The notes beneath the pieces are model-generated. The model was given only the letters and a program-made list of their open reading frames with translations. It made no database searches and had not been told where the DNA came from. The position numbers and the translations under genes are program-made. A stretch of 63,999 nt of DNA, filler included, from Basidiobolus ranarum (taxonomy: Eukaryota): the NCBI GenBank assembly GCA_040143965.1. It is 7 parts of 7 records of this genome, joined end to end, with 100 filler letters (N's around TTAATTAATTAA, not from the genome) between each part and the next. Parts side by side here need not be neighbours in the genome. Positions count along the whole stretch, not along the records: positions 55,100 to 63,999 come from JASJQH010000904.1; 6 more parts are not named here. One strand, given 5' to 3'. The stretch's first letter is position 1; each line of letters opens with the position of its first letter. Below are positions 27,581 to 63,999 of this stretch, piece after piece.

Positions 27581-27679
27581 TTGACTAAATAATGTTGACT
27601 AACTAATATGCAATATATGAAATAGTTAGGTGTATAAAGATAGGGATAACATATATGATAAAGACAATAAACTTCAACA
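27581..27679 (-). mobile_element. Partial LTR (second LTR family) at the contig end
   Basis: Reverse complement of the starts of the repeats at 29448 and 36345 (TGTTGAAGTTTATTGTC). Confidence 0.7.
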
Positions 27680-29447: not shown

Positions 29448-29779
29448 TGTTGAAGTTTATTGTCTTCATCATATTTGTTATATGTATCTTTATACACCTA
29501 CCTATTTCATATATCACATATAGGTCTGTTAACACTACTTAGTCAAATATCACTTAGCTGAAAAACGGAACATATATTATATATAATTGTGAATAATGTG
29601 AGAATTAGCAATTCCATGTTGGAAATTTCAAACCCATCCAAATTGCCCCAAATATAGCCCATTTTACTCCCACAGATGTTCTGAACACAACCACAGTGTT
29701 AGTTTTCTGTGTTTCCACCAAAATGTATAAATGCTTTATTTCTGGACAATAAATAAGTATCTTACGGAAGCTATTCACA
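29448..29779 (+). mobile_element. Solo LTR (second family)
   Basis: About 330 bp starting TGTTGAAG, closely similar to 36345-36662. Confidence 0.7.
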
Positions 29780-29899
29780 ACTCCACTTTTGTAAGGTTCC
29801 TCCAAACAGCCCATGTTTTCCCAATATACCTTTATTTAAGTATTTATGGCATTGTATTCCAGCCATAATAAGAATCAAACAATACAAGAATCTTGTTAT

Positions 29900-32880: not shown

Positions 32881-33959
32881 TCCAAGTTGATATTTGCATA
32901 CACTTTAGAGATGTTTCATGAGTAGGCCTATACTAGGGCATTTGCCATTTGCTTGCAAAAACCCAGGATAAGCCACATGAAAAAAGTCCAGAACTTTTGG
33001 AGTAAAGCCTGGTTTTTGGTTTTTCCACAATTGGCTCAAATCCAGGTGATATTAGGCAAGATTCCACACAATTTCCAAAATGTTAAACCACTCATCACCA
33101 GAGCAAGTGATGGCAGCTCTGACATTCAGAGTCTTTTGGTTTGCCAGTTTTCCTATAAGATTTGTACTTTCATGTGCCCAAGCAATTTTGGGTTGTTGTG
33201 TAGGCTTAATGGTCCAACACATATTCTGCTCTGCTAGATTGTCATGGTGATATTCATATATATGGTGTGGGATTGATTGAAATCCCATATGAGAATGGAA
33301 AGAGGGAGCAGCATATTGCTGTAGCTCAAGTACAGCATTCTGAAGGTCTTGTATCATTGTTGAGTAACTCTCTAACTGTTGACAAGTTGCTTCCAAACAC
33401 TGCATTAATTGTGGTATTGTGGTGTTATTGCTTGTCATGGCCTGTATAGCTACTTCATATTTTTTACTTATGGTTGCATACAAATCATTAAGGTGTTCTG
33501 CCTGCAATTCCCTTATTGTAATAATTCTATAGAGATAGATAAGTGAGTCATGCATCAGCTAAAGTCTTGGCAGTGATAGATCATTGGTTATGAATCTTGT
33601 GACTTATATTGACTTGTGTCAAGACAGATGACATAGAGGTTAATTCTGATTGTATATTCATCATGTGGTTGTTCCTTAGATCTGATAGAAGAGATACGAC
33701 AATAGATAGTTTGTTATGTGATAGGTCACCTGATATGATCACTGCATAAGGTCAGGTGACTAGTTAGCAATGATGAAAAACTAAATTCATATTCATGCAA
33801 GTTGTATAGATATGGCATAAGTTAAACAACTATTGATGTTGGTGCACAATAGTTAGGCTTTCTGAATCAAGTTCTATCAATTTGCATTGAGTCATCTGCT
33901 TGAGCTGTATTTTGTGTTAGATGGGAGGGAGATCTGAAAGCAGGTGATGAAGGAGAGAA

Positions 33960-35600: not shown

Positions 35601-35929
35601 TTTCTCTAGGAATGATAATAACAATGCAATGTCCAACTTTCTATTGAAGAAATATTTGGTGCCTTGACAAAAGAATATGCTGGTAACAATGTCCTGTGAT
35701 CTTGATCAAGTAATAAAGCTTCTTTGATCAAAAGCAACTGTAAACTCAACTAGTAGTGTCTTGATAAGGATGTGCTTAGAGCAATTATCCAATGGTGGAA
35801 GGTATCTTTGCCTTAGCAGGGAAGCTTGGGAAAGCTGGGAAATAAGAGGGAAGCCAAACTTGGGGGTTTTGAGGTTGGAGAACAAGGATGGAGAGAAGTC
35901 TTCAGACAAGTGTAAGTAGTCTCATCACA

Positions 35930-36340
35930 CTGTCACAATAAGGAACTGGACAAGGACCGGAACCAACAACCAGAGGCTAGAAGGCAGGAGAGTGCTTGGG
36001 TGTAGACCACTAGACAAAACAAGACTGGACAGGGAGGATATTTTTGCAAGAATCTTTATCAATAACTGGCATTGCTCAGACTGAGGTCTGATCAAGGAAT
36101 ATTTGGGGCTTATATAGTTATTGCAGGGTGAAGCATAAAATACTGAATATGCAATATACTGTGGCAAGTTCAAGTGTTGAGGTGTTGGGGACTACAACAA
36201 CTTATACAAAGAGAGATGATGTAAAGATGATCAGGTGGGATGACATGATTGGTTAAGTTTCATGGACTGTTCCACAGAACATGACTTCCATATATGGTAA
36301 CCTGGATGAGCTAACACAAGATTGCCAAGAACGGATAACA
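35930..36340 (-). mobile_element. Probable gypsy 5' LTR
   Basis: TGTCAC...ATAACA termini, located upstream (minus strand) of the gag remnant. Confidence 0.4.
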
Positions 36341-36344
36341 AGCC

Positions 36345-36662
36345 TGTTGAAGTTTATTGTCTTTATCATATTTATTATCTCTATCTTTATACACCTAACT
36401 ATTTCATATATCACATATAAATTAGTTAACTTTGCTTAGTCAAATATCACTTAGCTGAAAATTGGAACATATATTATATACATATGTGAATAATGTGAGA
36501 ATTAGCAATTCCATATTGGAAATTTCAAACTCATCCAAATTACCCCAAAGCTAGCTCATTTTACTCCCACAGATGTTCTGAACACAACCCCAGTGTTAGT
36601 TTTCTGTATTTCCACCAAAAAGTATAAATGCTTTATTTCTGGACAATAAACAATTATCTCAC
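36345..36662 (+). mobile_element. LTR (second family), cut by the contig end
   Basis: Direct copy of 29448-29770. Confidence 0.7.
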
Positions 36663-36762
36663 NNNNNNNNNNNNNNNNNNNNNNNNNNNNNNNNNNNNNN
36701 NNNNNNTTAATTAATTAANNNNNNNNNNNNNNNNNNNNNNNNNNNNNNNNNNNNNNNNNNNN
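36663..36762. other. Artificial contig spacer
   Basis: N run with TTAATTAATTAA linker. Confidence 0.98.
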
Positions 36763-45839: not shown

Positions 45840-45939
45840 NNNNNNNNNNNNNNNNNNNNNNNNNNNNNNNNNNNNNNNNNNNNTTAATTAATTAANNNNN
45901 NNNNNNNNNNNNNNNNNNNNNNNNNNNNNNNNNNNNNNN
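45840..45939. other. Artificial contig spacer
   Basis: N run with TTAATTAATTAA linker. Confidence 0.98.
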
Positions 45940-48900
45940 GGCAAGGTATTGCTTCCAAAGGTCTAGCTGGAAGTCTATAGCAACAATTTTAGGCTGTTTT
46001 GTTTCATGCAGCTGTAAAGCTAACTCAGAAACCAAAGGATCATCTTGTATTAGGGAGGGATGAAAACACCAGAAGGTGTAATCTTTATTTATCTCAAGTC
46101 AAACTAAACTATATCTGACTATCAAGGTGTCTAGGCAATGCTAATACCAACACTTTCCCCCAACTAAATATTCCTATAAACTAATACTGTAAATATTTCT
46201 TGAACATCTGTCTATCTAATGATTTGATTCATATATCAGCAATCTTGTCTTTGGTACAACAATAAGTAAAGTCAATAACCTTATTCTCTATAGTCTCTCC
46301 AATAAATTGTTGTCCATTATCAATACATATGCTTCTGTTATGAAATGAGGGATTTCTAGCTAATTTGATACAACTTTGATTATCTTGAAATTTATAGTTG
46401 GTAAAGTTTGAGATTAGCCTAGACCTATTAGGAGTTCTGTAAACCTTATTGCCTCTTTTGTTTCTTCACAAGCTGCCATATACTCTGCTTTTGTTCTTGA
46501 AAGCACAACAGTATGATATTTCTTTGAATTTCAAGAAATGAGATATTACAGCAGAGAAATAAGCATTCTTTTAATAAGGAAATTTCTGGCTTTCATTCAA
46601 ATCACAGAATGCATGCTTTGAGGCATTTTTGGTCAAGTTAAGAGTTGTTTCCAATGGGGCTGATACTGGATTACATTCTTCAATTTTAAACATCTTCAGT
46701 ATATCTAAGATTCATTCTGAATGGTTTAAATGTATTGTTTGGTAATTCTATTGATCCTAATTTGGGTTCCTAAATAATGCATCAGTTTATCAAGAGCAGT
46801 CATTTTGAATTTGGCACAAAAGCTGGATGTAGTTCTCTGCCAGTTCTTCAAGTCATTGGTTGCTTTAATAAGGTCATCTACATATAGGCCAATACAATTG
46901 AGTTTGTCTTACCTTTCCTGAACATAATACTATTGTTATCTTCACTCTTTTGGAATTTGTGTGTTCCCAAAAGAGGGTCTATCATGCTATTCCAAGCTTT
47001 TGGACATTGTTTTAAGCAATGGAGTGTTTCCTGGGGTCTGCAAGCGTTTATAGGGTTTTATGAGTCAACAAAACCATCTGGCTGCTCCATATAGATATCT
47101 GTGGCAGCCCACCATTCAAAACGGCAGCTTTGACATCAATTAGATATGGAGTATACTGATATTTAGCTGAAATGGTTAAATGCTATCTGATTCAACTAAA
47201 TTTTGCTACAGGAGCATAAATTTAAATACACTCTATTCCTGGTGTCTGGGAATAGCCTTTGTCTACTAGTTTGGTGTTGTATCTATATATATTGCCATTA
47301 AAGTTCTGATGAACTTTAAACACCAATTGGTGGCCAATTTACTCTCTGTCATCAGGTAAGTTTCTCAAAATACAAGTTTGCTTATGTAGCACAGTCTAAT
47401 ACTCATCAGCGATTACTGATTGACAAAATCTTTCATGAGGGCTATTCAGGACCTCCTTTCCAATGTGAGGCTCTTATTTTGGAGCTGTGCAGGCATATGC
47501 CCAACTTTTTGACTCATTGATATATTGCTTGAGGCTTTTTCTGATCTAACTAGATCTCCCAGTCTGCAATGAAGGTACTACAACTTCTGGCATTGCATTG
47601 GGGGCTTCAGTAAGTTGAATCCTGGTTGAAGGTTTCAATGATATTATATTTTCTTTGTTGTTTTAGTTTGAATCAATTTAAATTATTGGATCAGGAGAAA
47701 ATTAATACTCATGATTATCTGAAGTCATTTCGGGTAAATTATTTGAATTATCATCAAACAAAACATCCCTGGACTTGATCAACTTTGAAATATTGGTATC
47801 ATACAGTCTTTAGGCCTTGGTTGAGTACAATAACCCAGAATTTTGCATTTCTTACTTTTTGGAACATATTTGGACCAATTTTGCAGCATAATTTTGACTA
47901 AAGCAGTATATCCAAAAATTCTCAAATGCTTTACATTAAGTTGAGCTCCAAACCAAGCCTGACACAATCTGCTATTAGACCGACTTCTATTAAAGCTCCT
48001 ATTCTTTTGATATGTAGCTGTAGTAACAGATGCTGCTCAAAAATTATGAGACATATATTGCGCATATATCAAAGTTCTTGTCATTAAAATTCTAATCCAG
48101 TTAGCTCTTTCAGAAACTCCATTTTATTAAAGAGACATGGCTCAGTAGCTTCTTGCTTATTTCTGGAACTTGGCAAAAGTCGTTAAATATAGCTGAAGTA
48201 TATTTTCCACCAGTGTCCCTATGTATTTTCTTAATTCTATCACCAGTTTCAATCTCCACAAGAGTTTGAAAATCTCTCAAGAAAGAGAGAGCTTCTTCTC
48301 TTTCCATACAGTAGACTCATGTGTAGCTTGTGTAATCACAAATAAATGTGAAGTGATATATATTTCCCCAAAGAAAAATTCGACAAAGGTCCACAGAAAG
48401 CTATATGAACTAAATCCAATTTGTGAAAATATTTGATTAAATTAGACCTCTTGTAGGTTTGCCTGGCTTGCTTTCCATATGTGTAACTCTAAAAAGTTTC
48501 CATTATGGTTGGGGGGTTAATTAACATTTCACCCATACACAGTTTTTGATCATTTTGCTCAAAAGGTCTAATCCAATATGGCAAAATCTCTTATGGTGTG
48601 ATAGATAGTTTCTTGATTGTAATCAAGTATATTAACACATAAACCTCTTGGATTATATATCAGTGTGTATAAGCTCTGATGCTAATCTCACAAAGCTAAA
48701 TTTTTCCAATTTTGATAAGTCCTCAGGGTAATTTTGAACTCCAGAGATTAGGCAGTTTTTGATCATTTTGCTCAAAAAATCTATTCCAATATGGCCAAAT
48801 CTCTTGTGCCATAATTGAGTAGCTTCTAGATTGGAATAACTTACACTTATGCATAAGCTGCTTGGATTACATGGAAGTTTGTATTATTTCTGATCCTTTT

Positions 48901-50080
48901 CTCCCACAGCTAAGCAATTCCCATTTTGATCAATATCAGTGCAGCCTAACTTATCAGAGTTGAGTTTTGGCCTTTCTGAGGTAAGCTTGCATACAGAAAT
49001 TATATTTTTGCAATAACTTAAATATGTAGTACATCCTTGAGGGTATGCACTTTCTCCTCAGAAGCACTAGTTAATTTGACTTGAGTAGTCCTCTTTCCAA
49101 TAGCATCCAATATACAGTCAACTCATTTGAAACCATTTCTGACTGGGATTTCTTCATAACCACCAACCAATGCTTTCATTTGTGAAATGTTGGGAGGCTC
49201 TAGAATCAAAATACAATATCTGGTAATCCTTATGAGCTGTGATAGATAGAGCTGGTATGAACAAGTCATTTCTGTTGTAACAACAGTTGCAGATTCAATA
49301 TGTTTCTCTTCTTTGACAATTCTTGTGAAGCAATCTTTGCTTAAGTGGTTTAGGATTTGGCAGCTATCACAAAATATGTTACTTTTCTTCTTGAAGTGCC
49401 TTTGATATTTATAGGAAGGTTTGCCATATCCTGTTGAAGTATTTTCTACATTCTTTTGGTTGGCTCCTAAGGTATTTAAATCTTCATCCAGGAGTGTGCC
49501 AAATACATAATTTAAGTTCAAAATATTAGTTCTTGACTCCAGAGCTGCTACTAGGCTTTAAAACTTGTGTAGTAGTATATTCAGGGCCATAACTATGATT
49601 TCCTTTTTCTTGCAGCAGCCTTTAAATTTTGGTTTCCCAGACTTGATAATTAGTTCCATCAAATTTTTCAAAAGAAGGAAAAGCTCCAGAAATATGAGAG
49701 TGAACATCACAGAGAGAGCAAGCTTGGGGCTCAAATATATATTAAAATATTTTGGAGCCCATTGCAAGTGATTTGACAAATTCAAGATATTAGTGGTATT
49801 CATTTATTGATATATCAATTATATACACTTTTGTCAAGTTGTAAGCAAGCTAACATATGGATTTTGTAATGAATGGTCCTTGGAACATGTGTTCAATACT
49901 GGTGCTTCCATCACAAGCTTGAACAAATATATGTATCTGAGACCCTCTTAGTTGGTCAAAGCCTTCTCAGTAAACTCCAATTGAGAAAACTTGGTAATAT
50001 CTTAGTGAAATATAAGATAACTAAGTACTAGGCTATATATGGCTTTGTAGATGTTTAGGCAATGCTAACTTGAGCACATG
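45940..50080 (-). mobile_element. Near full-length decayed Ty1/copia (third LTR family): 5' LTR ~49740-50078, gag-IN-RT-RH, PPT, 3' LTR from 46152
   Basis: Degenerate PBS at ~49727; zinc knuckle CDSCQILNHLSKDC; integrase DTGGKY; HLRIFGY; DVKAAVLNG; LYVDDL; polypurine tract GGGGGAAAG then TGTTGGTATTAGCATTGCC, matching the LTR at 53781. Confidence 0.88.
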
Positions 50081-50850
50081 CAATATACATCTTGGTCTAC
50101 TCAATGGAAAGAAAAGAAAAAACTCTTTTTACTGGAACTATAATCAAGAAAAAATGTGCTCATCATGAGGGAGCATACAACTCAACACCATTTAATCACA
50201 TTTTAAACTTCATGGAATTAAATAAGAAGCTACTGCTCCCTATTGAACTCAACAAAAAGAAGTTGCTGAAAAGGCCAACAGGATTATTGTTGAAATGGCA
50301 AGATCTTCCATATATGCACAAAATTAAGATCACAATTTTGAGCTAAATCTGTTGCTACAGCTATATATTAAAAGTATGAATACCTCACTTGAAGTCTGTC
50401 TAGCTCAACGTTTTATCAAGCATGATTTATATACAAATTAATTTAAGATATTTGAGGATATTTGGATACATGACCTATATCATAAATATGATTGAAAGTT
50501 GGTCTGAATTGAATCCTTAAAGTCAGAAATGCATATTTTTGGGTCATTGTACTCAATATAAGGTTTAGAAATACTAGGATACTGGTTTGGAAGTTAATGT
50601 AAACCAGGGACATTTTGCTTGAAGAAAATGAAAATATTCCCCAAAATAGTATCAGATGATGAAAAAATCAATTTTCTCCTGATCCCATCATTCAGATTCA
50701 TTCAAACCAAGAGAATGACAGAAGTAGTATATATGTGGACTTTTCAGCCACAATTCAGGCTACTGAAGTGCCTGATATAGTGGTAGCAGCTATGGTTTCC
50801 TTATGCCAAACCAGGGGATCAATTCAGATAAGAAATTATTGTATTTACCA
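50080..50850 (+). mobile_element. Copia integrase fragment
   Basis: Similar to the reverse complement of 47560-48100 (YLRIFGY, KCIFLG). Confidence 0.6.
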
Positions 50851-51689
50851 GCTCAATGATAAATATAGAAATGAATACCAGAAGAAAACCAGAGGAAGCA
50901 CAAATACAGTGTAGGAATACCATCGGAAAATAGGAGGAAAAGAAAACTGGTAGAGTTATGACAAGAAAATAGGCAAAATATCATCAAAAGACTATTATAA
51001 AAAGGTATAAAAATTGTATCCAATTACAAAATCCTTGCACTGTTGCTTTTGGGTGGGATAGAGATAATAACTTAAATTTTCAGAAGAAAGCTTAATACTA
51101 CTACAAAGCTCCAGCAAAGCTGAATTCTTATACAGGAAGCTTAAAAATATTCATAGCAGATATATTCTTCACTCCATCTTTAAAGGGTAAAGTTACACAA
51201 TAGTATGTCAACAGCTTGAAAACTTTCTGAGAGAAGATTACTTCTGATGATAGAACTATCAAGAACCTTCAATACTACAAGGGTGAATAAAACTCTAGTA
51301 TTTACTCTAACTTGAAGTCAAAAGAAAGAGATATAGTTCTCTGAGATTGGCAAAAAATTGATGAAAGTGAGGTATTTTCTAAGGCTGCAAAAGTGAAGAT
51401 ACCTATGAAGGAATCTGAACTGAAGTCTTCAATTGTCAAGCCTAGTTCAGATGCAATAGGAGTCTTCATCATCCTACTATGATACAATGTTGAATATATA
51501 AAAAATATGATGCAGTTTTAGTTGATGCTAAGGATGGAAGCTTATTCACTAGGGGCAGGGGTGCTAATTTAAAGATATGGCCAAATGATGTGAATTGGTG
51601 GCTGGGAATAACTGCTGCAAGTGGGTGGCTTAGCATCAGGTTGCCAATTCAGTTACTAATATTACAGCTCTGGCCTTGAAACTTTGACA

Positions 51690-52900
51690 TATCAGCATCT
51701 GGTACTGCCACAGCTTTGCTTCTTAAACTGCACAAAATATTGTTGTAATAATTCCAACACTACATTGCTGAATCTGCCTGATATCTGCCAATGTGAGTTG
51801 ATTCCTAAGATTATATTAACACTATCTACAAACTACTCCCAATGTTGCCAATACGTATCTGGTAGAGATTTTCAAAGTTTCCCTTCAATATATACAAATT
51901 TAATACTTACAGTGTTGGAGTTTAAATAAACACCTAGATTAGTGAATAATGATGGCAGCCCTGGTAGAATATGATGGTATCTTGATGTTTTTTAAGCATC
52001 TTTCCAATCATTACAAATTTCAATCCTAGCTTGTATGGCTCATTCTGATTGAATTGGCTTACCAATAACAAAGAGTTTGTAACAAGATCATTCTCTTATT
52101 CATCCTCTTCTGATATAATGCCATCAGTGGAGGAATACACAAGGTCAACATCTAGCATCATATCCTCGAATTTTTATAAACTTACTAGTTTGACCACACT
52201 TGCACATATATCTGCATCATTGTGCTCATATAGCTGTGGTATCTCCATTGCATCTTGACTTTCAGTAGTGTTACCAAAACTTTGAGTCAAAGCACAGCCA
52301 GTGGACTCAGTGGGCAAAACTAGAGTTATTTTTGAGCACTTACCACTTTTGATACTCACCAGGCATTGTAAAGCTGCTATGAAATTGAATTGCCAGACAA
52401 AAGCAATGGCAATTTTGGAGACAGTGTAAAGTCTCAATCAACTCAATATTTTGTGCACATATATTGCATAAGTAAACATTGACCATTTCCTAGTTTCATA
52501 TCTACACCTTTCAACCATCTTGCAATCACTAAAACAAGAAAAGAAATGCATCTAACTCCAGAACTACTAAGCAAGTATTTACTAAAATTAGGGATACAAT
52601 TCCTTATTATTGTTCTAGTACAGGTATAAATTTCAAAATGAACTGATAATGGATACAAAAGTTCCCAGACATTGGAAACAGGCCATCAGTGTTGTATACA
52701 TGTTTCAAAATTAGTACACTTGCAAATCTGGCAGGTATGCCTCCCACATTTTCCCCTGTTCAACCCTATACAAGTTGCACAATTAAAATTATATCAATCA
52801 GTCAACTTATCAGTGAATCAAGTCCCAAAATTGCACTCATCTCAGGAACCAGCCACTATATATGGTAGCAGCAAAACATCAAGACAGATCCTCCATCAAA
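51690..52900 (-). mobile_element. CACTA/EnSpm-like remnant
   Basis: 51770-52050 is similar to 30780-31030; Cys-rich segment near 52680-52760. Confidence 0.5.
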
Positions 52901-52959
52901 GAAAGCACAATGCATAAAATGAAATACAAGCTAAAGACAAGGAAGAATGCCAGGCAACC

Positions 52960-53780
52960 AAGGAAACACAAAAATGCTGGATCCATATGTGACTACAGTA
53001 ACAGATGTACTTGTAGTACTAAAGGAACAAGCAAGTAAGGTTTAAAATTCTGACATCCCCAAAACAGCCTTTAGTACAAGATATGGACACTTTGAGTTCA
53101 AAGTACTCAATTTTAGCCTAAAAAAGCATCTGCAATCTTTATGGTAAAGAAGTTGTAGCTATGATCTTAGACAGATTTGCCATAGTATTCCTTAATGACA
53201 TCCTGATCTATAGCCAAAAAAACAAAGAAGAACTCCAACATCTCAAGAAAATCCTTGAATCACCAAAGTAACATCAATTGATTGCCAATCCCAAGAAATG
53301 GCAGTTTCTGAAGAAAGAGTAGGAATGTTTTAGTCTTACATTGTTCAAGAAAGGTATTCAAGTTGACCAGATGAAGATCAAAACTATACAAAACTGGCCT
53401 TGGCCCACAACTGTAAAGGAACTCAGAACATTTCTGTGACTTGCAAGTTATTACACAAGACTTGTAAGGGATTTGTCCAAGATGACTTCTCTTTTAACAC
53501 AACTGCACAGGACAAAGAACCATACCTTTAGCAAGGACCTCATGATGTAGCTTTCCAACAGATTAAGTAACTTCTCACTTAAACACCCATTTTTGCCTTC
53601 CCAGACTTCAGTCACCCCTTTACTGTTACTACAGATGCCTCTGACTTTCCCAACATATAAAGCATAACCATCCCACTACCTTTGAGTCTGAGAGACTTAC
53701 TCAGGGTGAATTAAACTCTCCTGTGCACAAAAAGGAACTTTAGGCAATCTTTCAATGCTTCAAAACTTGGAGATACTTAG
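52960..53780 (+). mobile_element. Ty3/gypsy reverse transcriptase-RNaseH fragment
   Basis: DIPKTAFSTRYGHFEF, VFLNDILIYS (decayed YLDD), WP.PTTVKELRTFL, TTDASDF, HKKEL.AI. Confidence 0.85.
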
Positions 53781-54890
53781 TGTTGAAATTAGCATTGCCT
53801 AAACACATATATAGTCATATATAGCTTAGTACTTAGTTATCTTATAATTCACCAAGATATTATCCATTATTCTCAATCAGAATTTACTAATAATATTTTT
53901 ACCAACTTAGAAGTTCTCAGATATATAGATTTTTCAAACTAGTGCTAGAAGCCCCAAACTTTGCACACATGCTACTGGGACCTCCCTTGACACACTCTAC
54001 ACATTAGTTTGTTTACATCTTGACAAAACTATAAAGTCAACTTTCTACTTAATAAATCAACAAGTGAAAACCACCAATTCCTCTAATTCTCCAATCCACT
54101 TCCAAAAAGGTCCCAAATACTTTAACAGGTTATGAGCCCAAAGCTGGCACTTTCTGTAATGTCTACTTCTCAAATTTATGGAACTTTTTCCTTTTCTGAA
54201 AAATTGAATGGAGCCATTTATCAAGTTTAGAAAATTAAAATGAAAATGCTGCTGCAAGAAAAAGAACTTTGGCACAATATTGTAGGAGAAGCAAACAATG
54301 CAAAACTATGTGAAACCAAAGTTTTAATTCAGGTTAAAAAAGGACAAAGTGCCTTTAACACAATTATGTCTCAATCTCAAAGACAAATTGCTAATTCAAT
54401 GTTCAAGTGCTAAAACTGCCAAGAAGGTATGAAAAGCCTGGGAAGACACCTACCAAACAAGTTCTGCTGCCAACATGATGTTTCTAAGAAGATAATTCTT
54501 TAACTTAAAGATGAAGCCAGGAGAAGACATTAAATCACTAATGAATAGAGTCACTATTTTAGCGGATTGAAATGGAATGTATTGGAGTATCTAAATTAGT
54601 GATTAGTCAGGATTAACCATCACTGATCAAAATGGGAATTATTTAGCTTTGGAAGAAAAGGATCAGAACTTGTACAAACTTACATAAAATCCAAAAGGTT
54701 TATGTGTAAATATAAGTTCTTCCAATCAAGAAACTATTCAATTATGGCATAAGAGATTTGACCATATTTGATTTGATTATTTGCATAAAATGATCAAAAA
54801 TTGCCCAATTTCTGGATTTGAAATGAACCCTCCAACCACAATGGAAATATGTGAGGGTTGTACATGTAGATAACATGAAAGGTAACTGTT
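53781..54890 (+). mobile_element. Ty1/copia 5' LTR (53781-54127), PBS (54128-54139) and deleted gag/pre-integrase, abutting gypsy RNaseH
   Basis: TGTTGAAATTAGC...TTTAACA followed by a perfect GGTTATGAGCCC; KMKMLLQEKELW; LWHKRFDH. Confidence 0.88.
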
Positions 54891-54892
54891 CA

Positions 54893-54999
54893 GTTAGGGG
54901 GGAGACAGTCACCCAAAGGTGAAATCTTTATTTCAAACAAAACAAAGAAGCCATAACTACTTTTGTAGTTTCTTAACTAATGTATGGAGATCAGGAGTA
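54893..54999 (+). mobile_element. Terminus of a young repeat (putative TIR DNA transposon)
   Basis: 54893-54978 is the exact reverse complement of 55100-55185. Confidence 0.6.
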
Positions 55000-55099
55000 N
55001 NNNNNNNNNNNNNNNNNNNNNNNNNNNNNNNNNNNNNNNNNNNTTAATTAATTAANNNNNNNNNNNNNNNNNNNNNNNNNNNNNNNNNNNNNNNNNNNN
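55000..55099. other. Artificial contig spacer
   Basis: N run with TTAATTAATTAA linker. Confidence 0.98.
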
Positions 55100-55185
55100 A
55101 GTTAAGAAACTACAAAAGTAGTTATGGCTTCTTTGTTTTGTTTGAAATAAAGATTTCACCTTTGGGTGACTGTCTCCCCCCTAAC
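55100..55185 (-). mobile_element. Same repeat terminus, interrupting the downstream gene
   Basis: Ends ...GGGTGACTGTCTCCCCCC|TAAC and abuts the coding frame. Confidence 0.6.
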
Positions 55186-57080
55186 CCTAAAATCTAGCCT
55201 TGAAAGATACGACTATCTAGCCCATGTCAAGAAGGTTTTCAACGGGTCTGAATCTGAAGCTAATGAATGCAGCATTGTACTCAGTCACCGTACGGGACCT
55301 CCCCAGGTCTCTTCACCGACGTCAGTTGTGGCACATTTAGTGTCTCTAGAAGGGTTAGATGAGATGCACATCGGGAATAACCACTCTCACGTCACCCTCG
55401 TGTCCTTATACAGCTGGGACTGGACTTGTATTCCCTCAAATGAAGCGAATCTTATCCATGCCTTGCAGGGTCTTGGGACCAATATCCAGCCGCTGAGAGC
55501 CTCTGATAAGAAACTTGCTACTCAGGATATCGCAGCAGTGAAAACAGGTGATCTGAAATCACCCACTGATTCCACACGAGTATGGCTTCATCAAAAACTA
55601 AAAGAAGGATATGTGCTCACGAAACAAACCTTACCAACAGGCGAACCAACCACTGCATTCTTTCGAGGTCCGTTATCACCGGTCTTGCCAGTAACTGTAG
55701 AGCAGAGATCCATTAAGCCTTGGTCACTGTTTGGGACAGATCTCCAAATCCTTGACACAAAAGTCGGTATTTTCGATACTTCTTACAACACTGCATGGCA
55801 ACTCGGCAAGGCATCTGCTATGGGTGACCGATCGTTCATTAAGAGCCTTCTTCAGCTTCGTAGTAATATCCACTCTAAAGTGTTGAACGCCACAAAAGCA
55901 GCCCTCGATGAAACCCATCTATCGCCGACGCAGTTTCTAAGCCCCTTGAAACAAGCAACTAGCACTACGGCAATCGTCCACGATCCTACTTCACTTACAA
56001 ATCACAGCATAGCAGCTCGGCGGTGTAAGGACCCATTACAGGGGCTGACGCAGTATATGAAGCAAGTTGAGCAATTAGTTCTCGGTGATTCTGATTTCGC
56101 TTCAGGTAAGAGTGACTTTTCCAAACAAACTTGGATTCTTCCATAATTTTCATTTGCCTCCAGGTAAAGCACTTTACAACGACTTTCAGTCCCCAAAGAA
56201 CCCAGATTGGGCTATTGTTATGAAATGGGTTCTAGATAAGTTGTTTATAGATATACCACACCACTATCTCATCACAGATCCTGATCATCTCCCGCCAGAG
56301 AGTATACGTACATTCTATATTGATGGTCGCTGGCTGGAAGCACTGATAGATGGAGCACTAAGTCATGGCAATCACGTCGACCGGGAAGATGACGTGATAC
56401 GTAGTGCCCTAAAGGAAAACGTCAATCAATATCTCTGTCACATCGTTAATGGGACACAGCCTCAACTACCTCGCTGGGGATTTTTTCTCCGCAGTAGTGT
56501 AATCAATGCATTCCCCGATTTGAAGGTGAATGCACCATGGCCCGATGGCCAAAAAGAGAAACGGGAGATACTTTTGATAAAAAAAATTACTGACGAAACA
56601 ATAATGTGCCTGTTGGGGCGTCATCCGGAAGAAGGAACACTTAAATCAATTACAATCTCTCAACCCGCGCACCAACAAAGGTTCTCTTGTGGTGTATCCT
56701 TGGATGACGATGAGCTCAAAGTAGAGTTCCGGAGTCTGGGAAATCAACCTGGAGCGTCAGATGATATGGTTGGTCATGATTTAGGGCTACGGACATGGCG
56801 GAGTCTGCCCAAGGAGTCAGATCCTTCTCAGCCACAAATATACGACTGGACCCACCGGACACTCATCTTGCCTTCATTTGCGAAGCGATGTGTAGACGAA
56901 CTTACCAAGGCTGGAATTTTTGAATGGAAACAAAGCGATCCTTGTCCTAGCTCCATTATCGGTGCACAGCTCACTGCTGCTGCTTTCAAGCTAAAAATTG
57001 ATGTCGACGTCACCGTGAGGCATCCGGATTCTTCCAACAACCATGGGACATGGACAACTTTACGTTCCCCCACCAATTAA
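55186..57080 (+). pseudogene. 5'-truncated gene of an uncharacterised fungal/bacterial protein family, one 58-nt intron (56106-56163)
   Basis: The two overlapping ORFs join in frame (DFAS-G-KALYND) after removing GTAAGA...CCTCCAG. Motifs YLAHV, SHRTGP, VAHLVSLEG, LVSLYSW, TGEPT.AF.RGPL.P, FGTDLQILD, AWQLGK, IP.HYLI.DP..LP.ESIR.F.ID..W..ALIDGALS, GF.LRS....FPDL.V, QP.HQQRF. Confidence 0.7.
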
Positions 57081-58532
57081 GGGTTCAGTACCTCCCAATG
57101 GTATTCATACTACAGGAATCAAGGCTAACAAGACTGTCAGGATTCCGGTGGCCACCCAATCATAACTCAGGAGAGGTATCTTTGTTGAGGTCCAGAAGGA
57201 GTATACATCACTTGGATGGTTTTTGCTTTTTTGAACGGAGGCAGTGCATTTGATGTACTTAAAAAAGTAGGTCTACATGCCAGTGATCATAGTATCGCTG
57301 CTAATATATTTAATTTTAGTGTTGAATGGTACCAGAGAGTGCCAACGAAGAAATAAAATTCGAGAATTGAGGTGTGGTTGACCCTAAAATAATGATCAAA
57401 TATACAAATATGCAGCACTATCTGTCATGATCCTGGCACAATCTGTGAGAACCGTTCTAACAAGCATGGCTGCATGAGTCAATGGGAAGTGCCTGGCACG
57501 GGATCATTTCCCCGTCAGGTAGAGGGTTCAAACTCTCAAGAACGAGTGGGAGGCAGTCGTTGACAAATGGAGGCATGCGGAACATGATTCAATTAGTAAT
57601 GCATGTAACCAAAATATTTCAGTCGTTATGAAGGTAGCAAATCCCTAGTAAGCATGAGTGTACTCTATTGAGTTAAATGCATAGAGAGATTACTGACAAC
57701 AATTTTTATCAGAGATTACCGACAGATTTTGGCAAATATTACCCAAATATGGACAGATGGTGGTAGATCATTTTTAATCGAAGCGATAAGCACTGAAATA
57801 TTTCCATTTAAGGATTACTATCACCTAAATACCATAATTAATCTGTTTCCAGAATCATCGCTATTTAAATCAATGCCGCCAAATATTTTGTCACAAATGT
57901 TACGCATCAAGCAAAGTCAGTTGAACAGGTTCATGAACTACTTATTCGGAATAGTTTGCTTTTGAAAAGCACCGAAGCAAGAAACAGAAGCCAACCCAAG
58001 TTCAGCATATATTCGGGTTCCATTTGACCAAATCAAAACAATACAATCAGGTTCCAGCAATTATCACAACCATTCATTCTGATTGGCTAATATTTAGGGT
58101 TAGGGATAATTTGACTTGTTTTTCGGAAACGGTAAGATTAAGAGCATTAATTAAGAGCATCAATTAAAAGCATCTAACGCGCGTATTGGGTGATGACTGA
58201 TCAAATGGCATTGAATTATTACACTTTTAGCACGTTATACTACCACAATTGTGAAGATGCGAACTCCACCAAGCGTTTACAAAACAAAGGCTAATTTTAC
58301 AGTTGAATATGGATAGTTACAAGCTACAATTGATTAGACTCTAGCACAGTAAGTTCTGAATAAATTGGGCAGTAAAAGCCTTTTTAGACTCTTTCAGAAT
58401 ACAAAGCTAAAACGGTTTAACATTAAGCGATGGGTATAGTAAGTAATGGGCCTAGTAAGTGATGGGTATAGTATGTGATGTGTATAAATACTCGATGTGT
58501 CTCCTCCCTTAGAAACTCAATCAACTTTCAAC

Positions 58533-59309
58533 ATGCTGTCTTCGATCAGAATTGTTACCGCTTTCTTTGCTGTCCTAGCAACAGTTCATTCAGCTCCAGT
58601 TGATCAACAAGACAGTTTGCTCCATAAGCTTGTCTTCAAAAACAAATGTTCCCATAATGTCTGGTTGGCCTCCTTATCAGAGTGGAGGAACTCACCTCTT
58701 CCCGTGAATGGTGGTCTCCTTACACCTGGTGAGTCATACACTCTCACTGTTGTGAATCGTTGGCAAGGTCGTTTCTGGGGTCGTACTGAATGTGACTTCG
58801 ATAACAAAAATATGACTACCAATACTGCTTGTGTTACCGGTGACTGTGGGTCAGGGAAAAAATACTGTCAAGACGTATCGGGACAACCACCAGCTTCCTT
58901 GGCTGAATTTCAATTCAATGGCTGGAACAATCTTGATTACTACGATGTTTCTCTCGTAGATGGCTACAATTTACCTATTTCCATCCAACCTCACTCTAAA
59001 ATCAACAATCCGGACAATCCCTACTCATGTGGTAGCCCTACTGTTGAAAAGGACATCAATCTAATTTGCCCTGAGGGATTGCAGCTACGTGATCATGGTG
59101 GAAAGGTTGTTGGTTGTAAGTCAGCTTGCGAAGCTTTTGGATCTCCTCAGTACTGTTGCGCCGGCGCTTACAGTACCCCCGAAACTTGCCATCCATCCGT
59201 CTACTCCAAGATTTTCAAGTCAGCCTGTCCATTCTGCTACAGTTATGCATATGACGACAAGACTTCCACTTTCACTTGTCAAGGTGATTACACCATTGAG
59301 TTCTGTTAA
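58533..59309 (+). CDS. Secreted thaumatin-like protein (PR-5/GH152), intronless
   Basis: TATAAATA at ~58483; signal peptide; NKC...VW, WQGRFWGRTEC, C.TGDCG, PPASLAEF, DYYDVSLVDGYNLP, GCKSAC, YCC.G, YSYAYDD.TSTFTC, Y.I.FC. Confidence 0.96.
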   Translation: MLSSIRIVTAFFAVLATVHSAPVDQQDSLLHKLVFKNKCSHNVWLASLSEWRNSPLPVNGGLLTPGESYTLTVVNRWQGRFWGRTECDFDNKNMTTNTACVTGDCGSGKKYCQDVSGQPPASLAEFQFNGWNNLDYYDVSLVDGYNLPISIQPHSKINNPDNPYSCGSPTVEKDINLICPEGLQLRDHGGKVVGCKSACEAFGSPQYCCAGAYSTPETCHPSVYSKIFKSACPFCYSYAYDDKTSTFTCQGDYTIEFC

Positions 59310-59812
59310 ATTTGTTTTGTTTCTTCTGTAATTACGTTAATAAATCTCTTTTTACTCTAAAAATTCCCTTGACTCTACTGCAACTACAAATGCAATTACA
59401 AATATACCGAGAATACCATTGGTGTGGCTAATTCGGGGTTACTAGTTGGATGAGATGTGGATTTGAGCTCAATAAAAGGCCCAACTGTCAAGGTTTTGAA
59501 GCGGTTAATATTTGCGAGGTAGGACAACTCGTAGACGAAAAGAGAACCTTCTCAGTCATTGGTTTTTTCATGTTGTTCTTATAATCATTAAGCTTGTGTC
59601 ATTATCATACAACTTTGATATGAATTCATCAAAGAATGCTTTGCAAATATGTACAGTATTGCATGCTATTATTATTATATTGCATACAGATGTCTAAGGA
59701 TGGTATCATTACAGTTTTTTATGTTTAGATTTATGTATGAAACTTTAAATATGAAACCTATTCGTTGTCGTAGCAAATTATGAGATTTATACTCATTTTA
59801 TATTCTATGCAT

Positions 59813-62800
59813 TTATGCCCAATCGCAAATGATTGAGCCAGCGAAACTTTTACAGATAGTACCAGCTGCGCAGGAATATTTCAACTGTTTACCATTAGAG
59901 CATACAGTGAATTTTGGCGACATTTCAGAATCTTCGCATTCGTACACTCCCTCTACGCATGGGGAGTCTGTAGGCGTAGGCTTACTTTCATCAGAGGTAA
60001 CCGTTATCACTCTAGTAACGGTCACGGTAGAGGCAATGCACCCGAGAGAGGTAGTCTTAGGGGGAACAGAATTAGTGTGCGACGAAAGAGTTGCTGAGTT
60101 CATGGAGCTGGCGGTGGGTCTAGTACTTTCTGAGTGGGAAGAGACGATAGTGGGTTTGGTAATTTCTGAATGAACAGAACTGAAAGTTGGCTCAGTGGTT
60201 TCAAAGTGAGACGAGCTAGGTGTATGTTTGACACTTTCTGAGTGAACAAAACCGGAAGTAGGCTTCTCACTTTCCGAACGAACAAAACTGGAGCTTGAGT
60301 GTACACTCTCAGAGTGTCCTGTTTCCGAGTGAGATGAACTGGCAGTTGACTTTACACTTTCCAAGTGAACCGAGTTGGCAGTGGGTTTCAAGCTGTCAGA
60401 GTAAGCAGAAGTAGATGTAGCCTTCACGCTCTTAGAGTTAATAGAGCTGACGGTGGATCTTACGTTTTCCGAGTGAGTAGAGCTGAAAGTTGGCTTTAAG
60501 CTTTCGGAGTTAGCGGCACTGTTAGTGGGCTTCACGATTTCAGATTGACTAAAGCTGACGGTTGACTTGCTGCTCTCAGAGTGACTAACATTGACGATAG
60601 GCTCTACGGTTTCAGAGTGAGCAGAGCTGTTAGTGGGCTTTACGCTTTCAGAGTGAGCGGCGCTGTTGGTGGGTTTCACGCTTTCCAAGCGACTAGAGTT
60701 GAAAGTTGGTTTTACGCTTTCAGAGTGACTAGAGCTAACGGAGGGTTTCACGCTTTCAGAGTGAGCAGAGCTGGAAGTAGGCTCTACATTTTCGGAGTGC
60801 TTAGAACCGGCAGTGGTTTTTTCACTTTCAGAGTGACTAGAGCTGACTGTGGGCTTCACAGTTTCAGAGTTACTTGAGTTGACAGTTGGCTTTACATTTT
60901 CGGAGTTCTTAAAACTGTTAGTGGGTTTTTCGCTTTCAGAGCGACTATAGCTGACTGTGGGCTTTACGCTTTCGGAGTGAGCAGCGCTGTTGGTAGGTTT
61001 CACGCTTTCCGAGCGACTAGAGTTTAAAGTTGGCTTTACGCTTTCATATTGACTAGAGCTAACGGAGGGTTTCACGCTTTCAGAGTGAGCAGAGCTGAAA
61101 GTGGGCTTTACTATTTCAGAGTGACTTGGGCTGACAGTTTGCTTGACACTTTCAGAATGACTTGAGCTGACTGTAGGCTTTACATTTTCAGAGTAACTAG
61201 AACTGGCTGTAGGCTTAATACTTTCAGAGTGACTAGAGCTAACAGAGGGTTTTACGCTTTCAGAGTGTGCGGAGCTGGCAGTGGGCTTCACAGTTTCAGA
61301 CTTACTTGAGCTGACAGTTGGTTTTACACTTTCGGACTGAGCAGAGCTGTGAGAGGGCTTCACATTTTCAGATTGATGAGAGCTGACGGTGGGTATTATA
61401 GTTTCAGAGTGAGCAGAACTGAAGGTTGCTCTCGCACTTTCAGACTGGGGGGAGCTAATAGTGGGCTTCAAACTTTCAGAGTAACTATAACCGACGGTAG
61501 GCTTCACAATATGAGAGTGACTAGAGCTGACGGTTAGCTTTAAGCTTACAGAGTGGGTAGAGTGTTCAATAGCTGCCGAACTTTCAGATTTTCTCGAGCT
61601 GAAGGTAGGCTTGACACTTTCAGAATGACTTGACCTGACTGTTGGCTTTACACTTTCTGAATGCTTAGAGCCGACACTGGGCTTTACAATGTCAGAGTGA
61701 GCAGAGCTGGAAGTGGACTTTATGGCTCCAGAGTAACTAGGGTTGATTGTTGGCTTTAAACCTTGGGAGGGACTAGTACTATCAGTAGGCTTCACACTTT
61801 CAGAGTGACTAGAGATTATAGTTGGCTTAAAGCTTTCAGAGTGCTTAGAACTGCCGGTGGGCTTTACGCTTTCAGAGTGAGTGGAGATGGCCGTAGGTTT
61901 CACGGTTTCTGAATGGGCAGAGCTGAAAGCTGGCTTTAAGCTTTCAGAGTGAGCCGAACTAACAGTGGGTTTAGTACTTACTATGGGCTTTACGCTTTCA
62001 GAGTGAGTGGCGCTGGCCGTAGGCTTCACGGTTTCTGAATGGGCAGAGCTGACAGCTGGCTTTAAGCTTTCAGAGTGAGCAGAACTAACAGTGGGTTTAG
62101 TACTTACTATGGGCTTTACGCTTTCAGAATGAGCAGTGCTGGCAGTAGGCTTCACACTTTCAGAATGGGTAGAGCCGGTAGTAGACTTCACGATTTCAGA
62201 ATGAGCAGAGCTGAAAGTGGCTTTTGCACTTTCGGAGTGCTTAGTACTGCCTGTGGGCTTGTGGCTCGCAGAGTGAGCAGTGCTGGCACTAGGTTTTACA
62301 ATTTCAGAAGGAGCAGAGCTGACAGTTGGCTTCAAGCCTTCCGAGTGACTAGAGCTGGCTGTAGGCTTTACGTCCTCAGAGTGACTGGAGCTGGCAGTGG
62401 GCATTATGCTTTTTGAATGGACAGAGCTGACTGTTGGCTTCACAATCTCAGAGTGACTGGAGCTGACAGTTGGTTTTAAGTTTTCAGGGTGACTAGAGCT
62501 GTAAGTAGGCTTTACGCTCTCAGAGTGCTTAGAACTAACTGTGGGCTTTATGATTTCAGAGTGACCAGTGCTGGCAGTAGGTTTCACAGTTTCAGAATGA
62601 CTAGAGCTAACAGTTGGTTTTACGCTTTCAAAGTGCTTAGAACTAACCGTAGGCTTTATGCTTTCAGAGTACTTAGAACTAGCGGCGGGCTTAACGCTTG
62701 CGGAGTGACTAGAGCTGGCAGTGGGTTTTACGTTTTCAGAATGGGCAGAGCTGACGGTTGGCTTTATAACTTCAGAGTGCTTAGAACTGACCGTGGGCTT

Positions 62801-63999
62801 TGCGCTCTTAGAGTTGTTAGAACTAGCGGTGAGCTTAACGCTTTCGGAGTGAACAGAGCTGGCAGTGGGCTTTAGGCTCTCAGAGTGACCAGTGCTGGCA
62901 GTAGGCTTCACGATTTCAGAATGAGCAGAGCTGACAGTTGGCTTTAAGTCTTCCGAGTGACTAGAGCTGTAAGTAGGCTTTACGCTTTCGGAGTGAACAG
63001 AGCTGGCGGTGGGCTTTAGGCTCTCAGAGTGACCAGTGCTGGCAGTATGCTTCATACTTTCAGAATGGGCAGAACTGGTAGTGGGCTTTGCAATTTCAGA
63101 ATGAGCGGAGCTGACAGTTGGCTTTAAGTCTTCCGAGTGACTAGAGCTGTAAGTAGGCTTTTCGCTCTCAGAGTGACTGAAGCTGGCAGTGGACATTATG
63201 CTTTCAGAGTTGTTAGAACTACTGGTGGGTTTACCGCTTTCGGAGGGAGCAGTGTTAACAGTAGGCTTCACAGTTTCAAAGTGACTAGAACTGGCAGTGG
63301 GCTTTAAACTTTCAGAATGGGCAGAGCTAACAGTTGGTTTCATAACTTCAGAGTGCTTAGAACTGACCGTGGGCTTTGCGCTCTTAGAGTTGTTAGAACT
63401 AGCGGTGGGCTTAACACTTTCGGAGTGAGCAGAGCTGACGGTGGGCTTTAGGCTCTCAAAGTGGCCAGTGCTGGCAGTAGGCTTCATGATTTCAGAATGA
63501 GCAGAGCTGACAGTTGGCTTTAAGTCTTCCGAGTGACTAGAGCTGTAAGTAGGCTTTACGCTCTCAGAATGAGCAGTGCTGGCAGTAGGCTTCACACTTT
63601 CAGAATGGGTAGAGCCGGTAGTGGACTTCACGATTTCAGAATGAGCAGAGCTGAAAGTGGCTTTTGCACTTTCGGAGTGTTTAGTACTGACTATGGGCTT
63701 TACACTTTCAGAGTGGACAGAGCTGGTAGTGGGCTTCACGATTTCAGAACGAGCAGAGCTGACGGTTGGTTTTAAACTTTCAGAGTAACTAGAGCTGGCG
63801 GTGGGCTTTACGCTTTCAGAGTGCTTAGAACTAACAGTAGGCTTAGCACTTTCGGAGTGCATAGTACTGCCTGTGGGCTTTAGGCTCTCAGAGTGAGCAG
63901 TGCTGGCACTAGGTTTTACAATTTCAGAAGGAGCAGAGCTGACAGTTGGCTTCAAGCCTTCCGAGTGACTAGAGCTGGCTGTAGGCTTTACGTCCTCAG
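59813..63999 (-). CDS. Very large Ser/Thr/His-rich tandem-repeat (mucin-like) protein with C-terminal CBM19-like Cys module; 5' end outside the window
   Basis: Uninterrupted ORF of more than 1380 aa; 12-aa repeat KPT(A/V)SS(A/S)HSES(V/L); C-terminus CVEGVYEC......FTVCSNG...YSCAAGTIC.......CDWA. Confidence 0.9.
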   Translation of the reverse strand, partial: EDVKPTASSSHSEGLKPTVSSAPSEIVKPSASTAHSESLKPTGSTMHSESAKPTVSSKHSESVKPTASSSYSESLKPTVSSARSEIVKPTTSSVHSESVKPIVSTKHSESAKATFSSAHSEIVKSTTGSTHSESVKPTASTAHSESVKPTYSSSHSEDLKPTVSSAHSEIMKPTASTGHFESLKPTVSSAHSESVKPTASSNNSKSAKPTVSSKHSEVMKPTVSSAHSESLKPTASSSHFETVKPTVNTAPSESGKPTSSSNNSESIMSTASFSHSESEKPTYSSSHSEDLKPTVSSAHSEIAKPTTSSAHSESMKHTASTGHSESLKPTASSVHSESVKPTYSSSHSEDLKPTVSSAHSEIVKPTASTGHSESLKPTASSVHSESVKLTASSNNSKSAKPTVSSKHSEVIKPTVSSAHSENVKPTASSSHSASVKPAASSKYSESIKPTVSSKHFESVKPTVSSSHSETVKPTASTGHSEIIKPTVSSKHSESVKPTYSSSHPENLKPTVSSSHSEIVKPTVSSVHSKSIMPTASSSHSEDVKPTASSSHSEGLKPTVSSAPSEIVKPSASTAHSASHKPTGSTKHSESAKATFSSAHSEIVKSTTGSTHSESVKPTASTAHSESVKPIVSTKPTVSSAHSESLKPAVSSAHSETVKPTASATHSESVKPIVSTKPTVSSAHSESLKPAFSSAHSETVKPTAISTHSESVKPTGSSKHSESFKPTIISSHSESVKPTDSTSPSQGLKPTINPSYSGAIKSTSSSAHSDIVKPSVGSKHSESVKPTVRSSHSESVKPTFSSRKSESSAAIEHSTHSVSLKLTVSSSHSHIVKPTVGYSYSESLKPTISSPQSESARATFSSAHSETIIPTVSSHQSENVKPSHSSAQSESVKPTVSSSKSETVKPTASSAHSESVKPSVSSSHSESIKPTASSSYSENVKPTVSSSHSESVKQTVSPSHSEIVKPTFSSAHSESVKPSVSSSQYESVKPTLNSSRSESVKPTNSAAHSESVKPTVSYSRSESEKPTNSFKNSENVKPTVNSSNSETVKPTVSSSHSESEKTTAGSKHSENVEPTSSSAHSESVKPSVSSSHSESVKPTFNSSRLESVKPTNSAAHSESVKPTNSSAHSETVEPIVNVSHSESSKSTVSFSQSEIVKPTNSAANSESLKPTFSSTHSENVRSTVSSINSKSVKATSTSAYSDSLKPTANSVHLESVKSTASSSHSETGHSESVHSSSSFVRSESEKPTSGFVHSESVKHTPSSSHFETTEPTFSSVHSEITKPTIVSSHSESTRPTASSMNSATLSSHTNSVPPKTTSLGCIASTVTVTRVITVTSDESKPTPTDSPCVEGVYECEDSEMSPKFTVCSNGKQLKYSCAAGTICKSFAGSIICDWA
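60090..63999 (-). repeat. 36-bp coding minisatellite (~105 units) with higher-order duplications
   Basis: Recurring CTTTCAGAGTGACTAGAGCTGACAGTTGGCTT-type unit; 62283-62379 is repeated identically at 63903-63999. Confidence 0.92.

Follow-up and report, generated by a model that had tools for sequence, protein, structure and literature searches.

A damaged member of an uncharacterised bacterial and fungal gene family in Basidiobolus ranarum, probably acquired from another fungus

The window analysed, 63,999 nt of Basidiobolus ranarum DNA (assembly GCA_040143965.1), consists of seven separate contigs (9099 down to 8900 bases), ordered by decreasing size and joined artificially. The last contig (JASJQH010000904.1; positions 55100–63999) bears, at its very start, two open reading frames (ORFs; 55151–56146 and 56079–57080) that had been read, from the sequence alone, as one spliced gene truncated by a transposable element (TE), transferred from another fungus and possibly the relic of a multi-gene system. 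The locus thus raises the question of which family the gene belongs to, how it reached an early-diverging fungus, and whether it still works. The region 55186–57198 is probably a decaying copy of a gene named here g3, after its position in a bacterial cassette; it lies on genuine host DNA and would have been acquired from another fungus, and the intact g3 of its relatives would work together with a partner, g4. The observations of the original prediction were partly confirmed, most of them being correct, and its interpretation was supported and extended.

The two ORFs form a single gene joined through a GT..AG intron and, as had been proposed, no frameshift separates them (coordinates in Table 1). 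The spliced product is 100% identical to a 607-aa protein (P0001) from an 8900-nt contig, with an identical splice junction. This protein is NCBI entry KAK9762582.1 (‘hypothetical protein K7432_011548, partial [Basidiobolus ranarum]’), which therefore represents the same gene, with the same junction, on the same contig. The record gives no function, family or comment, and is silent on the out-of-frame last ∼10 residues and on the C-terminal domain remnants that lie beyond. A 990-aa relative (P0003, European Nucleotide Archive, ENA) aligns collinearly with both exons, uninterrupted across the junction, and the intron has no counterpart in it. The nearest relative is represented by two proteins from a 17,880-nt Logan contig, P0002 being its N-terminal half and P0205 its C-terminal half; by our reading of its read-through translation, P0002 reads through GTAAG at the same codon and phase.

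At E ≤ 1e-3, exon 2 had matches in 2068 representative clusters among 1.84 billion representatives; for 263 of these the E value was 1e-30 or lower. The exon 1 search gave 59 matches. A hidden Markov model (HMM) of the bacterial g3 proteins matched both window ORFs (E 2.1e-31 and 3.1e-17). The organism-named rows of the exon 1 search comprised 15 Pezizomycotina, besides Basidiobolus itself, and seven bacteria; a second set of organism-named rows contained 30 Pezizomycotina among 31, the other being the chytrid Spizellomyces. Across both sets, 45 of the 46 named fungal rows besides Basidiobolus were Pezizomycotina. No Zoopagomycota or Mucoromycota appeared among the organism-named rows, which are a minority of the matches, no fungal genome collection having been searched. 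The named fungal members range from Orbiliomycetes and Pezizomycetes to lichens and usually have 1100–1200 aa, with a longer form of 1750–1800 aa in Nectriaceae and relatives; the bacterial members have about 750–790 aa and are 22–33% identical. A metagenome scan detected four distant loci (31–39% identity), none of them Basidiobolus-like, and an Atlas search returned only hypothetical or DUF6603 bacterial clusters. The g3 family had no match in Pfam, NCBIfam, PADLOC (PADLOC-DB 2.0) or PHROG, and no sequence relative of g3 was found in the PDB. Neither window exon matched a Pfam family at E ≤ 0.1, and the protein is not DUF6603 itself. Among 24 homologues, Pfam recognised nothing but a TIG domain (one bacterial protein) and a methyltransferase (one Fusarium protein). 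The existence of an uncharacterised family present in Pezizomycotina and bacteria was thus borne out, and the motifs on which it had been recognised (RGPL.P, AWQLG and others) are the consensus of the family alignment.

The window copy belongs to g3 by collinear core homology and by its invariant residues; it lacks the N-terminal domain of the family and the C-terminal domain of about 300 aa that characterises the fungal long form. Proteins F4679DRAFT_404617 of Xylaria curta (P0004) and BU16DRAFT_536795 of Lophium mytilinum (P0208) are collinear with the whole remnant at 41–46% identity; Pezizomycotina proteins of this type share its motifs and form a clade around it. However, the ∼1100–1200-aa Pezizomycotina proteins contain N-terminal (∼230 aa) and C-terminal (∼300 aa) domains that the window copy does not have, and several of them adjoin a g4 gene. 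Bacterial members such as P0027 (Burkholderiaceae) and P0048 (Streptomyces nigrescens) are homologous over the N-terminal domain and the core, with the invariant residues in common. They lack the fungal C-terminal domain, lie inside a cassette of four to six genes and form a separate clade (100/100), so the window copy did not come directly from them. A separate observation concerns P0040, a 1115-aa bacterial g3 from a Sphingorhabdus metagenome-assembled genome (MAG) that carries C-terminal choice-of-anchor Z repeats and IPT/TIG domains; this fusion suggests that some members, at least, may be located at the surface or outside the cell.

The original prediction had placed the bacterial homologues beside very large DUF6603-type proteins, and inspection of their gene neighbourhoods showed that conserved partner genes do exist. 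A DUF6603 gene was found directly upstream of g3 in all three loci examined in a Pseudomonas genome, an alphaproteobacterial MAG and a Bacteroidota MAG. The three loci contain six co-directional genes in identical arrangement, with homologues 67–78% identical to P0027. These genes encode an unknown protein of 858–908 aa (g1), a DUF6603 protein of about 887 aa (g2; PF20248, E 1e-151 and 8e-149), the family of the window copy (g3), two unknown proteins of 1291–1382 aa (g4) and 535–577 aa (g5), and a ∼605-aa protein with a sub-threshold Hint_2 match (g6). The order g2-g3-g4-g5 recurs in 28 actinomycete loci, where g2 was present in 26, g4 in 27 and g5 in 24; most of the missing genes fall at cut flanks. 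In Streptomyces lydicamycinicus, the four-gene cassette is flanked by polyphosphate kinase/CHAD and aldo-keto reductase genes. The cassette proteins had no NCBIfam, PHROG or PADLOC match, the sole PADLOC row (DndD, 0.0048, on a fungal g4) being read as noise. Three further observations were made at the six-gene loci. The whole cassette (positions ∼4500–19700 of loci L001–L003) is 67–78% identical between the Pseudomonas genome and the MAGs of the other two bacterial groups, a likeness that implies recent inter-phylum transfer; a DDE transposase gene lies just downstream of one locus (L002), and a Tox-PAAR-like gene upstream of another (L003).

The partner g4 was found beside g3 in fungi too, in line with the idea of a multi-gene system. 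A bacterial g4 HMM matched two of 247 fetched proteins, one from Cosmosporella (P0149) and one from Amanita (P0177); the Cosmosporella protein, of 3118 aa, contains g4 at residues 79–1135 (E 7e-60) and g3 at residues 1397–2210. With the fungal g4 part as the query, 58 proteins of about 1300–1400 aa were recovered, all the organism-named ones from Pezizomycotina. Five of these have locus tags consecutive to those of g3 genes (Cylindrodendrum g1690/g1691, Fusarium coicis 4734/4733, F. napiforme 10412/10413, Dactylonectria 566936/566935 and Trichoderma gracile 001461/001460), and five further g3/g4 pairs come from equal-sized contigs (Xylaria curta, Lasiosphaeria miniovina, two from Logan and one from ENA). 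By these sequence comparisons, the g3-g4 pair is conserved across two kingdoms. Relatives of DUF6603, g5, g1 and g6 were not detected in fungal proteins (HMMs against the 247 proteins, Pfam and hhalign), and phmmer searches with single cassette proteins gave no matches beyond g3. The partner genes sought in the seven contigs of the window were not found either: its six-frame translation contained no match to the g1, g2, g4, g5 or g6 HMMs, the upstream side ending at the contig end. Among the cassette families and the fungal extensions, hhalign matched only the C-terminal domain to the long-form extension (probability 95.5); its g5–C-terminal domain comparison (probability 5) was not significant. 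Nor was that of the g3 and g4 N-terminal profiles (probability 9.9, E 0.0032, 66 columns), both of which contain a ‘P.W...V/L-rich strand’.

The 5′ end of the window copy lies at the end of a dispersed repeat with which its contig begins. The only other copy of this 86-nt repeat in the window is near the end of the previous contig. Both contigs enter the same repeat and then diverge, so the assembly broke there; a shared repeat with diverging flanks is the usual cause of an assembly break. Homology to relatives begins right after the repeat, at 55184–55190 (residue 229 of the Xylaria protein P0004 aligns to 55184, and residue 248 of P0002 to 55190), and the P0002 coding sequence is continuous at the position matching the break. 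The missing N-terminal domain, of about 200–260 aa, is conserved from bacteria to fungi and includes nearly invariant P and W columns. The 5′ half was looked for in the seven contigs by homology and HMM searches of the six-frame translation, and none of them contained a match. The claim that a repeat terminus cut the gene therefore holds in so far as the repeat boundary coincides with the break in the gene, although the abutting 86 nt are also the contig start. As a side observation, inverted telomere-like (TTAGGG)2 motifs bracket the remnant at 55179–55199 and 58085–58105 (86% over 21 nt), and the 86-nt repeat ends in one (TTAGGG)2-type unit; considered as transposon ends, the left motif overlaps the coding homology and the size of the match is near chance level.

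The 3′ end is damaged too, a decay overlooked in the original prediction that fits its description of the gene as a relic. Gene-derived sequence extends to about 57198. Residues 225–274 of P0205 align in the exon-2 frame at 56901–57050, and residues 275–286 resume in the +1 frame at 57046–57081 (summed E 5.5e-14), revealing a 1-nt frameshift. In a further alignment, P0205 residues 508–565 match 57022–57198 (E 3.7e-5, 37% identity); the end of its C-terminal domain, residues about 527–565, falls at about 57100–57198. This out-of-frame C-terminal remnant contains an in-frame TAA at 57163–57165. Between the linker segment and the terminal piece, the fungal C-terminal domain has lost about 240 codons. 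No further sequence of this domain was detected in 56900–58500, nor was there any match to the C-terminal parts of P0003 or P0004. P0205, P0003 and the ascomycete proteins extend ∼290 residues past the core.

Between these lesions the core is intact. Conservation was scored on the 78 other rows of an 82-row alignment: of the columns that the window protein covers, it keeps all 40 conserved at 90% or more and 61 of 63 at 80% or more, both exceptions being R-to-K changes. Identity to outgroups over the same columns was 0.536 for both the window copy and its nearest relative in one comparison, and 0.504 versus 0.526 in another. The branches of the two in the careful tree measured 0.28 and 0.24, respectively, which indicates equal rates; an apparent fivefold faster evolution of the window copy was discarded, since it arose only because the nearest relative had been entered in the form of two half-length rows. 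Since the core is intact but both ends are damaged, either the lesions are recent or the truncated gene is still used. A recent relic is favoured because both ends were hit and because the lost N-terminal domain is conserved family-wide. The window copy is thus most likely a recently inactivated relic, and we infer that it is no longer active.

The origin of the gene was examined in trees obtained from the 82 rows with posterior mean site frequencies (PMSF) and Shimodaira–Hasegawa-like approximate likelihood ratio tests (SH-aLRT), from a 38-row subset, and under LG+G4 with 1000 ultrafast bootstraps. Bacteria and fungi were split with a support of 100 in the 82-row PMSF tree and 100/100 in the LG+G4 tree, and Spizellomyces lay at the base of the fungal clade in all trees. 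In the 82-row tree, the window copy grouped with the two Logan rows (99), and these with P0003 (99); the whole Basidiobolus group belonged to a clade of 12 rows (96) that also comprised Podospora, Lophium, Xylaria and the long Fusarium forms. The 38-row subset gave the same placement of the window copy (SH-aLRT 96–100 across the PMSF trees). Under LG+G4, the window copy, its two relatives and P0003 were nested at 100/100 inside an eight-row clade with Xylaria, Lophium, Podospora and Fusarium. In an approximately unbiased (AU) test, confining the 25 named Pezizomycotina rows to a single clade that excluded bacteria, the chytrid and the Basidiobolus group lowered the log-likelihood by 93 units (p-AU 6.5e-5), in a comparison made under LG+G4 only and for a group that came from an earlier hypothesis but was tested after the tree had been seen. 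The proposed fungus-to-fungus transfer is upheld by this test and by the nesting.

Because the fungal C-terminal domain is present in the nearest relative, the gene came from a fungal-type source rather than from a bacterium. As read here, the nearest relative also shares the intron, which P0003 lacks; this suggests long residence in the recipient lineage. From these sequence data, the Basidiobolus copy was most likely acquired by transfer of a fungal-type gene from another fungus, the direction presumably being into Basidiobolus. Tabima et al. 2020 (PMC7466969) report bacterial transfers into Basidiobolus and describe the transferred candidates as intron-poor (median 0 versus 2). Those cases are horizontal gains in Basidiobolus, as proposed here for the window copy; that screen dealt with bacterial donors and secondary-metabolite genes, while the window copy has fungal nearest relatives and no known pathway. 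Elsewhere in the trees, a protein from a Heterodermia MAG (P0230) was found to be near-identical to one from Diaporthe citri (P0227), with end branches of 0.06–0.08; this likeness suggests either that a non-lichen fungus is present in the MAG or that the gene was transferred very recently.

Several observations weigh against this account and were set against other explanations. Contamination or a chimeric assembly could be argued from the closest named relatives, which are ascomycetes, from the short length of the contig (8900 nt) and from its palindromic relation to the end of another contig. Yet the contig also carries a thaumatin-like gene typical of Basidiobolus, whose product is at least 90% identical to a protein of B. 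meristosporus and to others of B. ranarum; the genuine host origin of the contig follows from this neighbour. The 86 identical nt at its start are common to a typical CpG-depleted contig of the same assembly, which was counted for host origin, and the best ascomycete identity is only 41–46%. The contig is therefore taken as genuine B. ranarum DNA, and contamination or chimerism is very unlikely.

The gene could still be functional, with its 5′ part beyond the contig break (through repeat collapse or a TE), as a short form resembling the ∼780-aa bacterial proteins. In keeping with this, the core of ∼600 codons is an ORF without sign of relaxed constraint, all 40 invariant columns and an unaltered rate are retained, the intron ends are canonical, CpG is retained, and the contig simply stops at 55100; ‘TE-truncated’ rests on the 86 nt of repeat visible at the contig end. 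Bacterial members wholly lack the C-terminal domain, so its loss need not abolish function; the copy could still be in use, or errors of assembly or sequencing could account for part of the damage. However, homology ends exactly at the repeat boundary, a point where the coding sequence of the nearest relative runs on unbroken, the window contains no 5′ half, and the three independent 3′ lesions resemble decay rather than a clean domain loss. A functional gene is for these reasons considered unlikely, although worth keeping in mind.

Vertical inheritance would require an ancient fungal family with old paralogues, one kept by Basidiobolus and the gene lost in most lineages. Members outside Pezizomycotina (the chytrid at the base of the fungal clade and a 703-aa model or fragment from the basidiomycete Amanita phalloides) speak for it, as do the at least four deep paralogue lineages within Pezizomycotina, which make ancient paralogy with many losses conceivable, and the clean split of bacteria from fungi. 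The limits of the AU test given above count in the same direction, and the Basidiobolus-like nature of P0002/P0205 (Logan) and P0003 (ENA) was assumed. However, the paralogues would have to predate the split of Zoopagomycota from Dikarya and then vanish almost everywhere, the named fungal rows besides Basidiobolus are Pezizomycotina with a single exception, the AU test rejects Pezizomycotina monophyly, and the gene tree departs from the species tree within Pezizomycotina itself. Ancient paralogy with massive loss is rated below transfer, and vertical descent is judged improbable. In the account preferred here, transfer into the Basidiobolus lineage would have occurred long enough ago for the gene to gain the intron also found in its nearest relative; the N-terminal domain would have been cut off where the dispersed repeat, and the contig, begins, and the C-terminal domain lost through the frameshift, the ∼240-codon deletion and the stop.

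What the intact protein does was approached through structure and distribution. The AlphaFold2 model of the window protein was confident (predicted local distance difference test, pLDDT, 83.1; predicted template modelling score, pTM, 0.80), as was that of a Kitasatospora g4 (pLDDT 78.8, pTM 0.75). Foldseek searches with these whole-protein models gave no match at E ≤ 1e-3, for g3 against the PDB and BFVD and likewise for g4; the structural check suggested with the original prediction thus yielded no clear fold match. In VIA searches, the best hit for g3 was a discontinuous Ig/FN3-like sandwich (Z 5.3) and that for g4 a helical hairpin (Z 6.5), values that common arrangements also reach. There was no recognisable enzyme, ATPase, signal peptide or membrane segment. 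The bacterial cassette is accessory, patchy and nearly identical across phyla, and the fungal members are multi-copy and incongruent with the species tree. From this distribution, g3 could tentatively be seen as part of a large assembly of several proteins that has an accessory role in conflict (defence or toxin delivery). Intact g3 would work with its conserved partner g4 (about 1150–1400 aa), with which it may interact physically; in bacteria, both would act inside the DUF6603-g3-g4-g5 cassette, with two further genes in some phyla. The proposed assembly would consist of beta sandwiches and long helical hairpins and would include no enzyme that could be recognised. Against these proposals stand the absence of any g4 match on the contig of the g3 remnant, the absence of g4 from contigs sized as those of the nearest relatives (from a shared-word search, which is weak evidence), and the lack of a solved-fold match beyond generic sandwiches and hairpins (Z ≤ 6.5), the function being guessed from distribution alone.

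A bolder and more doubtful possibility is that g3 and g4 form the core of an undescribed trans-kingdom system, a non-enzymatic assembly for conflict between organisms that moves as a unit. Such a unit would move between bacterial phyla, from bacteria into fungi, and from fungus to fungus; bacteria would extend the g3-g4 core by DUF6603, g5 and two further large proteins, and the Basidiobolus remnant would be the fossil of a fungus-to-fungus hop into an early-diverging lineage. A literature search for DUF6603, PF20248 and five locus tags found no paper in open-access main texts, although supplements may hold such identifiers; the g3-g4/DUF6603 module appears to be unstudied, at least in main texts.

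Table 1. Features of the g3 remnant, its neighbour and the joints of the window
Feature	Position	Strand	Remarks
Artificial joints, N44-TTAATTAATTAA-N44 (six in all, non-genomic)	9100–9199, 18293–18392, 27481–27580		Twelve runs of 44 N
Artificial joints, N44-TTAATTAATTAA-N44, continued	36663–36762, 45840–45939, 55000–55099		A feature across a joint is an artefact
Dispersed-repeat copy, 86 nt, very start of contig	55100–55185		Inverted; 100% identical to 54893–54978
Exon 1, family core, no start codon	55186–56105	+	E 9.4e-198 to P0001
Intron, 58 nt, phase 1	56106–56163	+	Sequence; GTAAGA...CAG ends; spliced product is P0001
Exon 2, in-frame part	56164–57045	+	Most conserved half of the core
1-nt frameshift relative to nearest relative	57043–57050	+	P0205 alignment
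Out-of-frame remnant: linker segment, then last ∼35 codons of fungal C-terminal domain	57046–57198	+	
TAA ending the annotated ORF	57078–57080	+	∼10 codons past the frameshift; simply the first stop after it
Thaumatin-like gene	58533–59309	+	PF00314, E 6.9e-73; 1.45 kb downstream of the remnant

The surroundings of the remnant differ in base composition from part of the window. The CpG observed/expected ratio of the gene is 0.75 (75 CpG in 1895 nt), and that of the four gene-bearing contigs 0.60–0.81, as against 0.05 for contigs 3, 4 and 6 (18393–27480, 27581–36662 and 45940–54999), which are TE-like, with a TpG+CpA excess of 1.28–1.37; in contig 6, only one ORF reaches 120 aa. This loss of CpG, confined to repeats, looks like a methylation-driven process or one resembling repeat-induced point mutation. 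The earlier remark that the gene keeps its CpGs, unlike the TE nests, is right as to the values, but those nests are on other contigs and not physically linked to it. The 90%-identity cluster of the thaumatin-like protein contains six proteins, five from B. ranarum and one from B. meristosporus, so that B. ranarum has at least four other copies at 90% identity or more. Just upstream of this gene are three direct repeats with a 16-nt spacing (58424–58480). The contig also contains an ORF of at least 1394 aa (59813–63997, minus strand) that runs off its end and encodes Ser/Thr/Pro-rich repeats of ∼13 aa with a Cys-rich domain at the end; its product resembles a mucin or an adhesin.

What remains at this locus is a broken relic; the interest lies in the family and its partner genes. 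The relic leads to a set of large proteins whose neighbouring genes stay the same in genomes ranging from Streptomyces and Pseudomonas to Fusarium and Trichoderma. A two-gene core present in bacteria and filamentous fungi can be tested in tractable organisms. If the proposed system is real, it would be an addition to the few known multi-gene systems common to several kingdoms, and Basidiobolus would have acquired a gene from another fungus, alongside the bacterial transfers already reported for this lineage.

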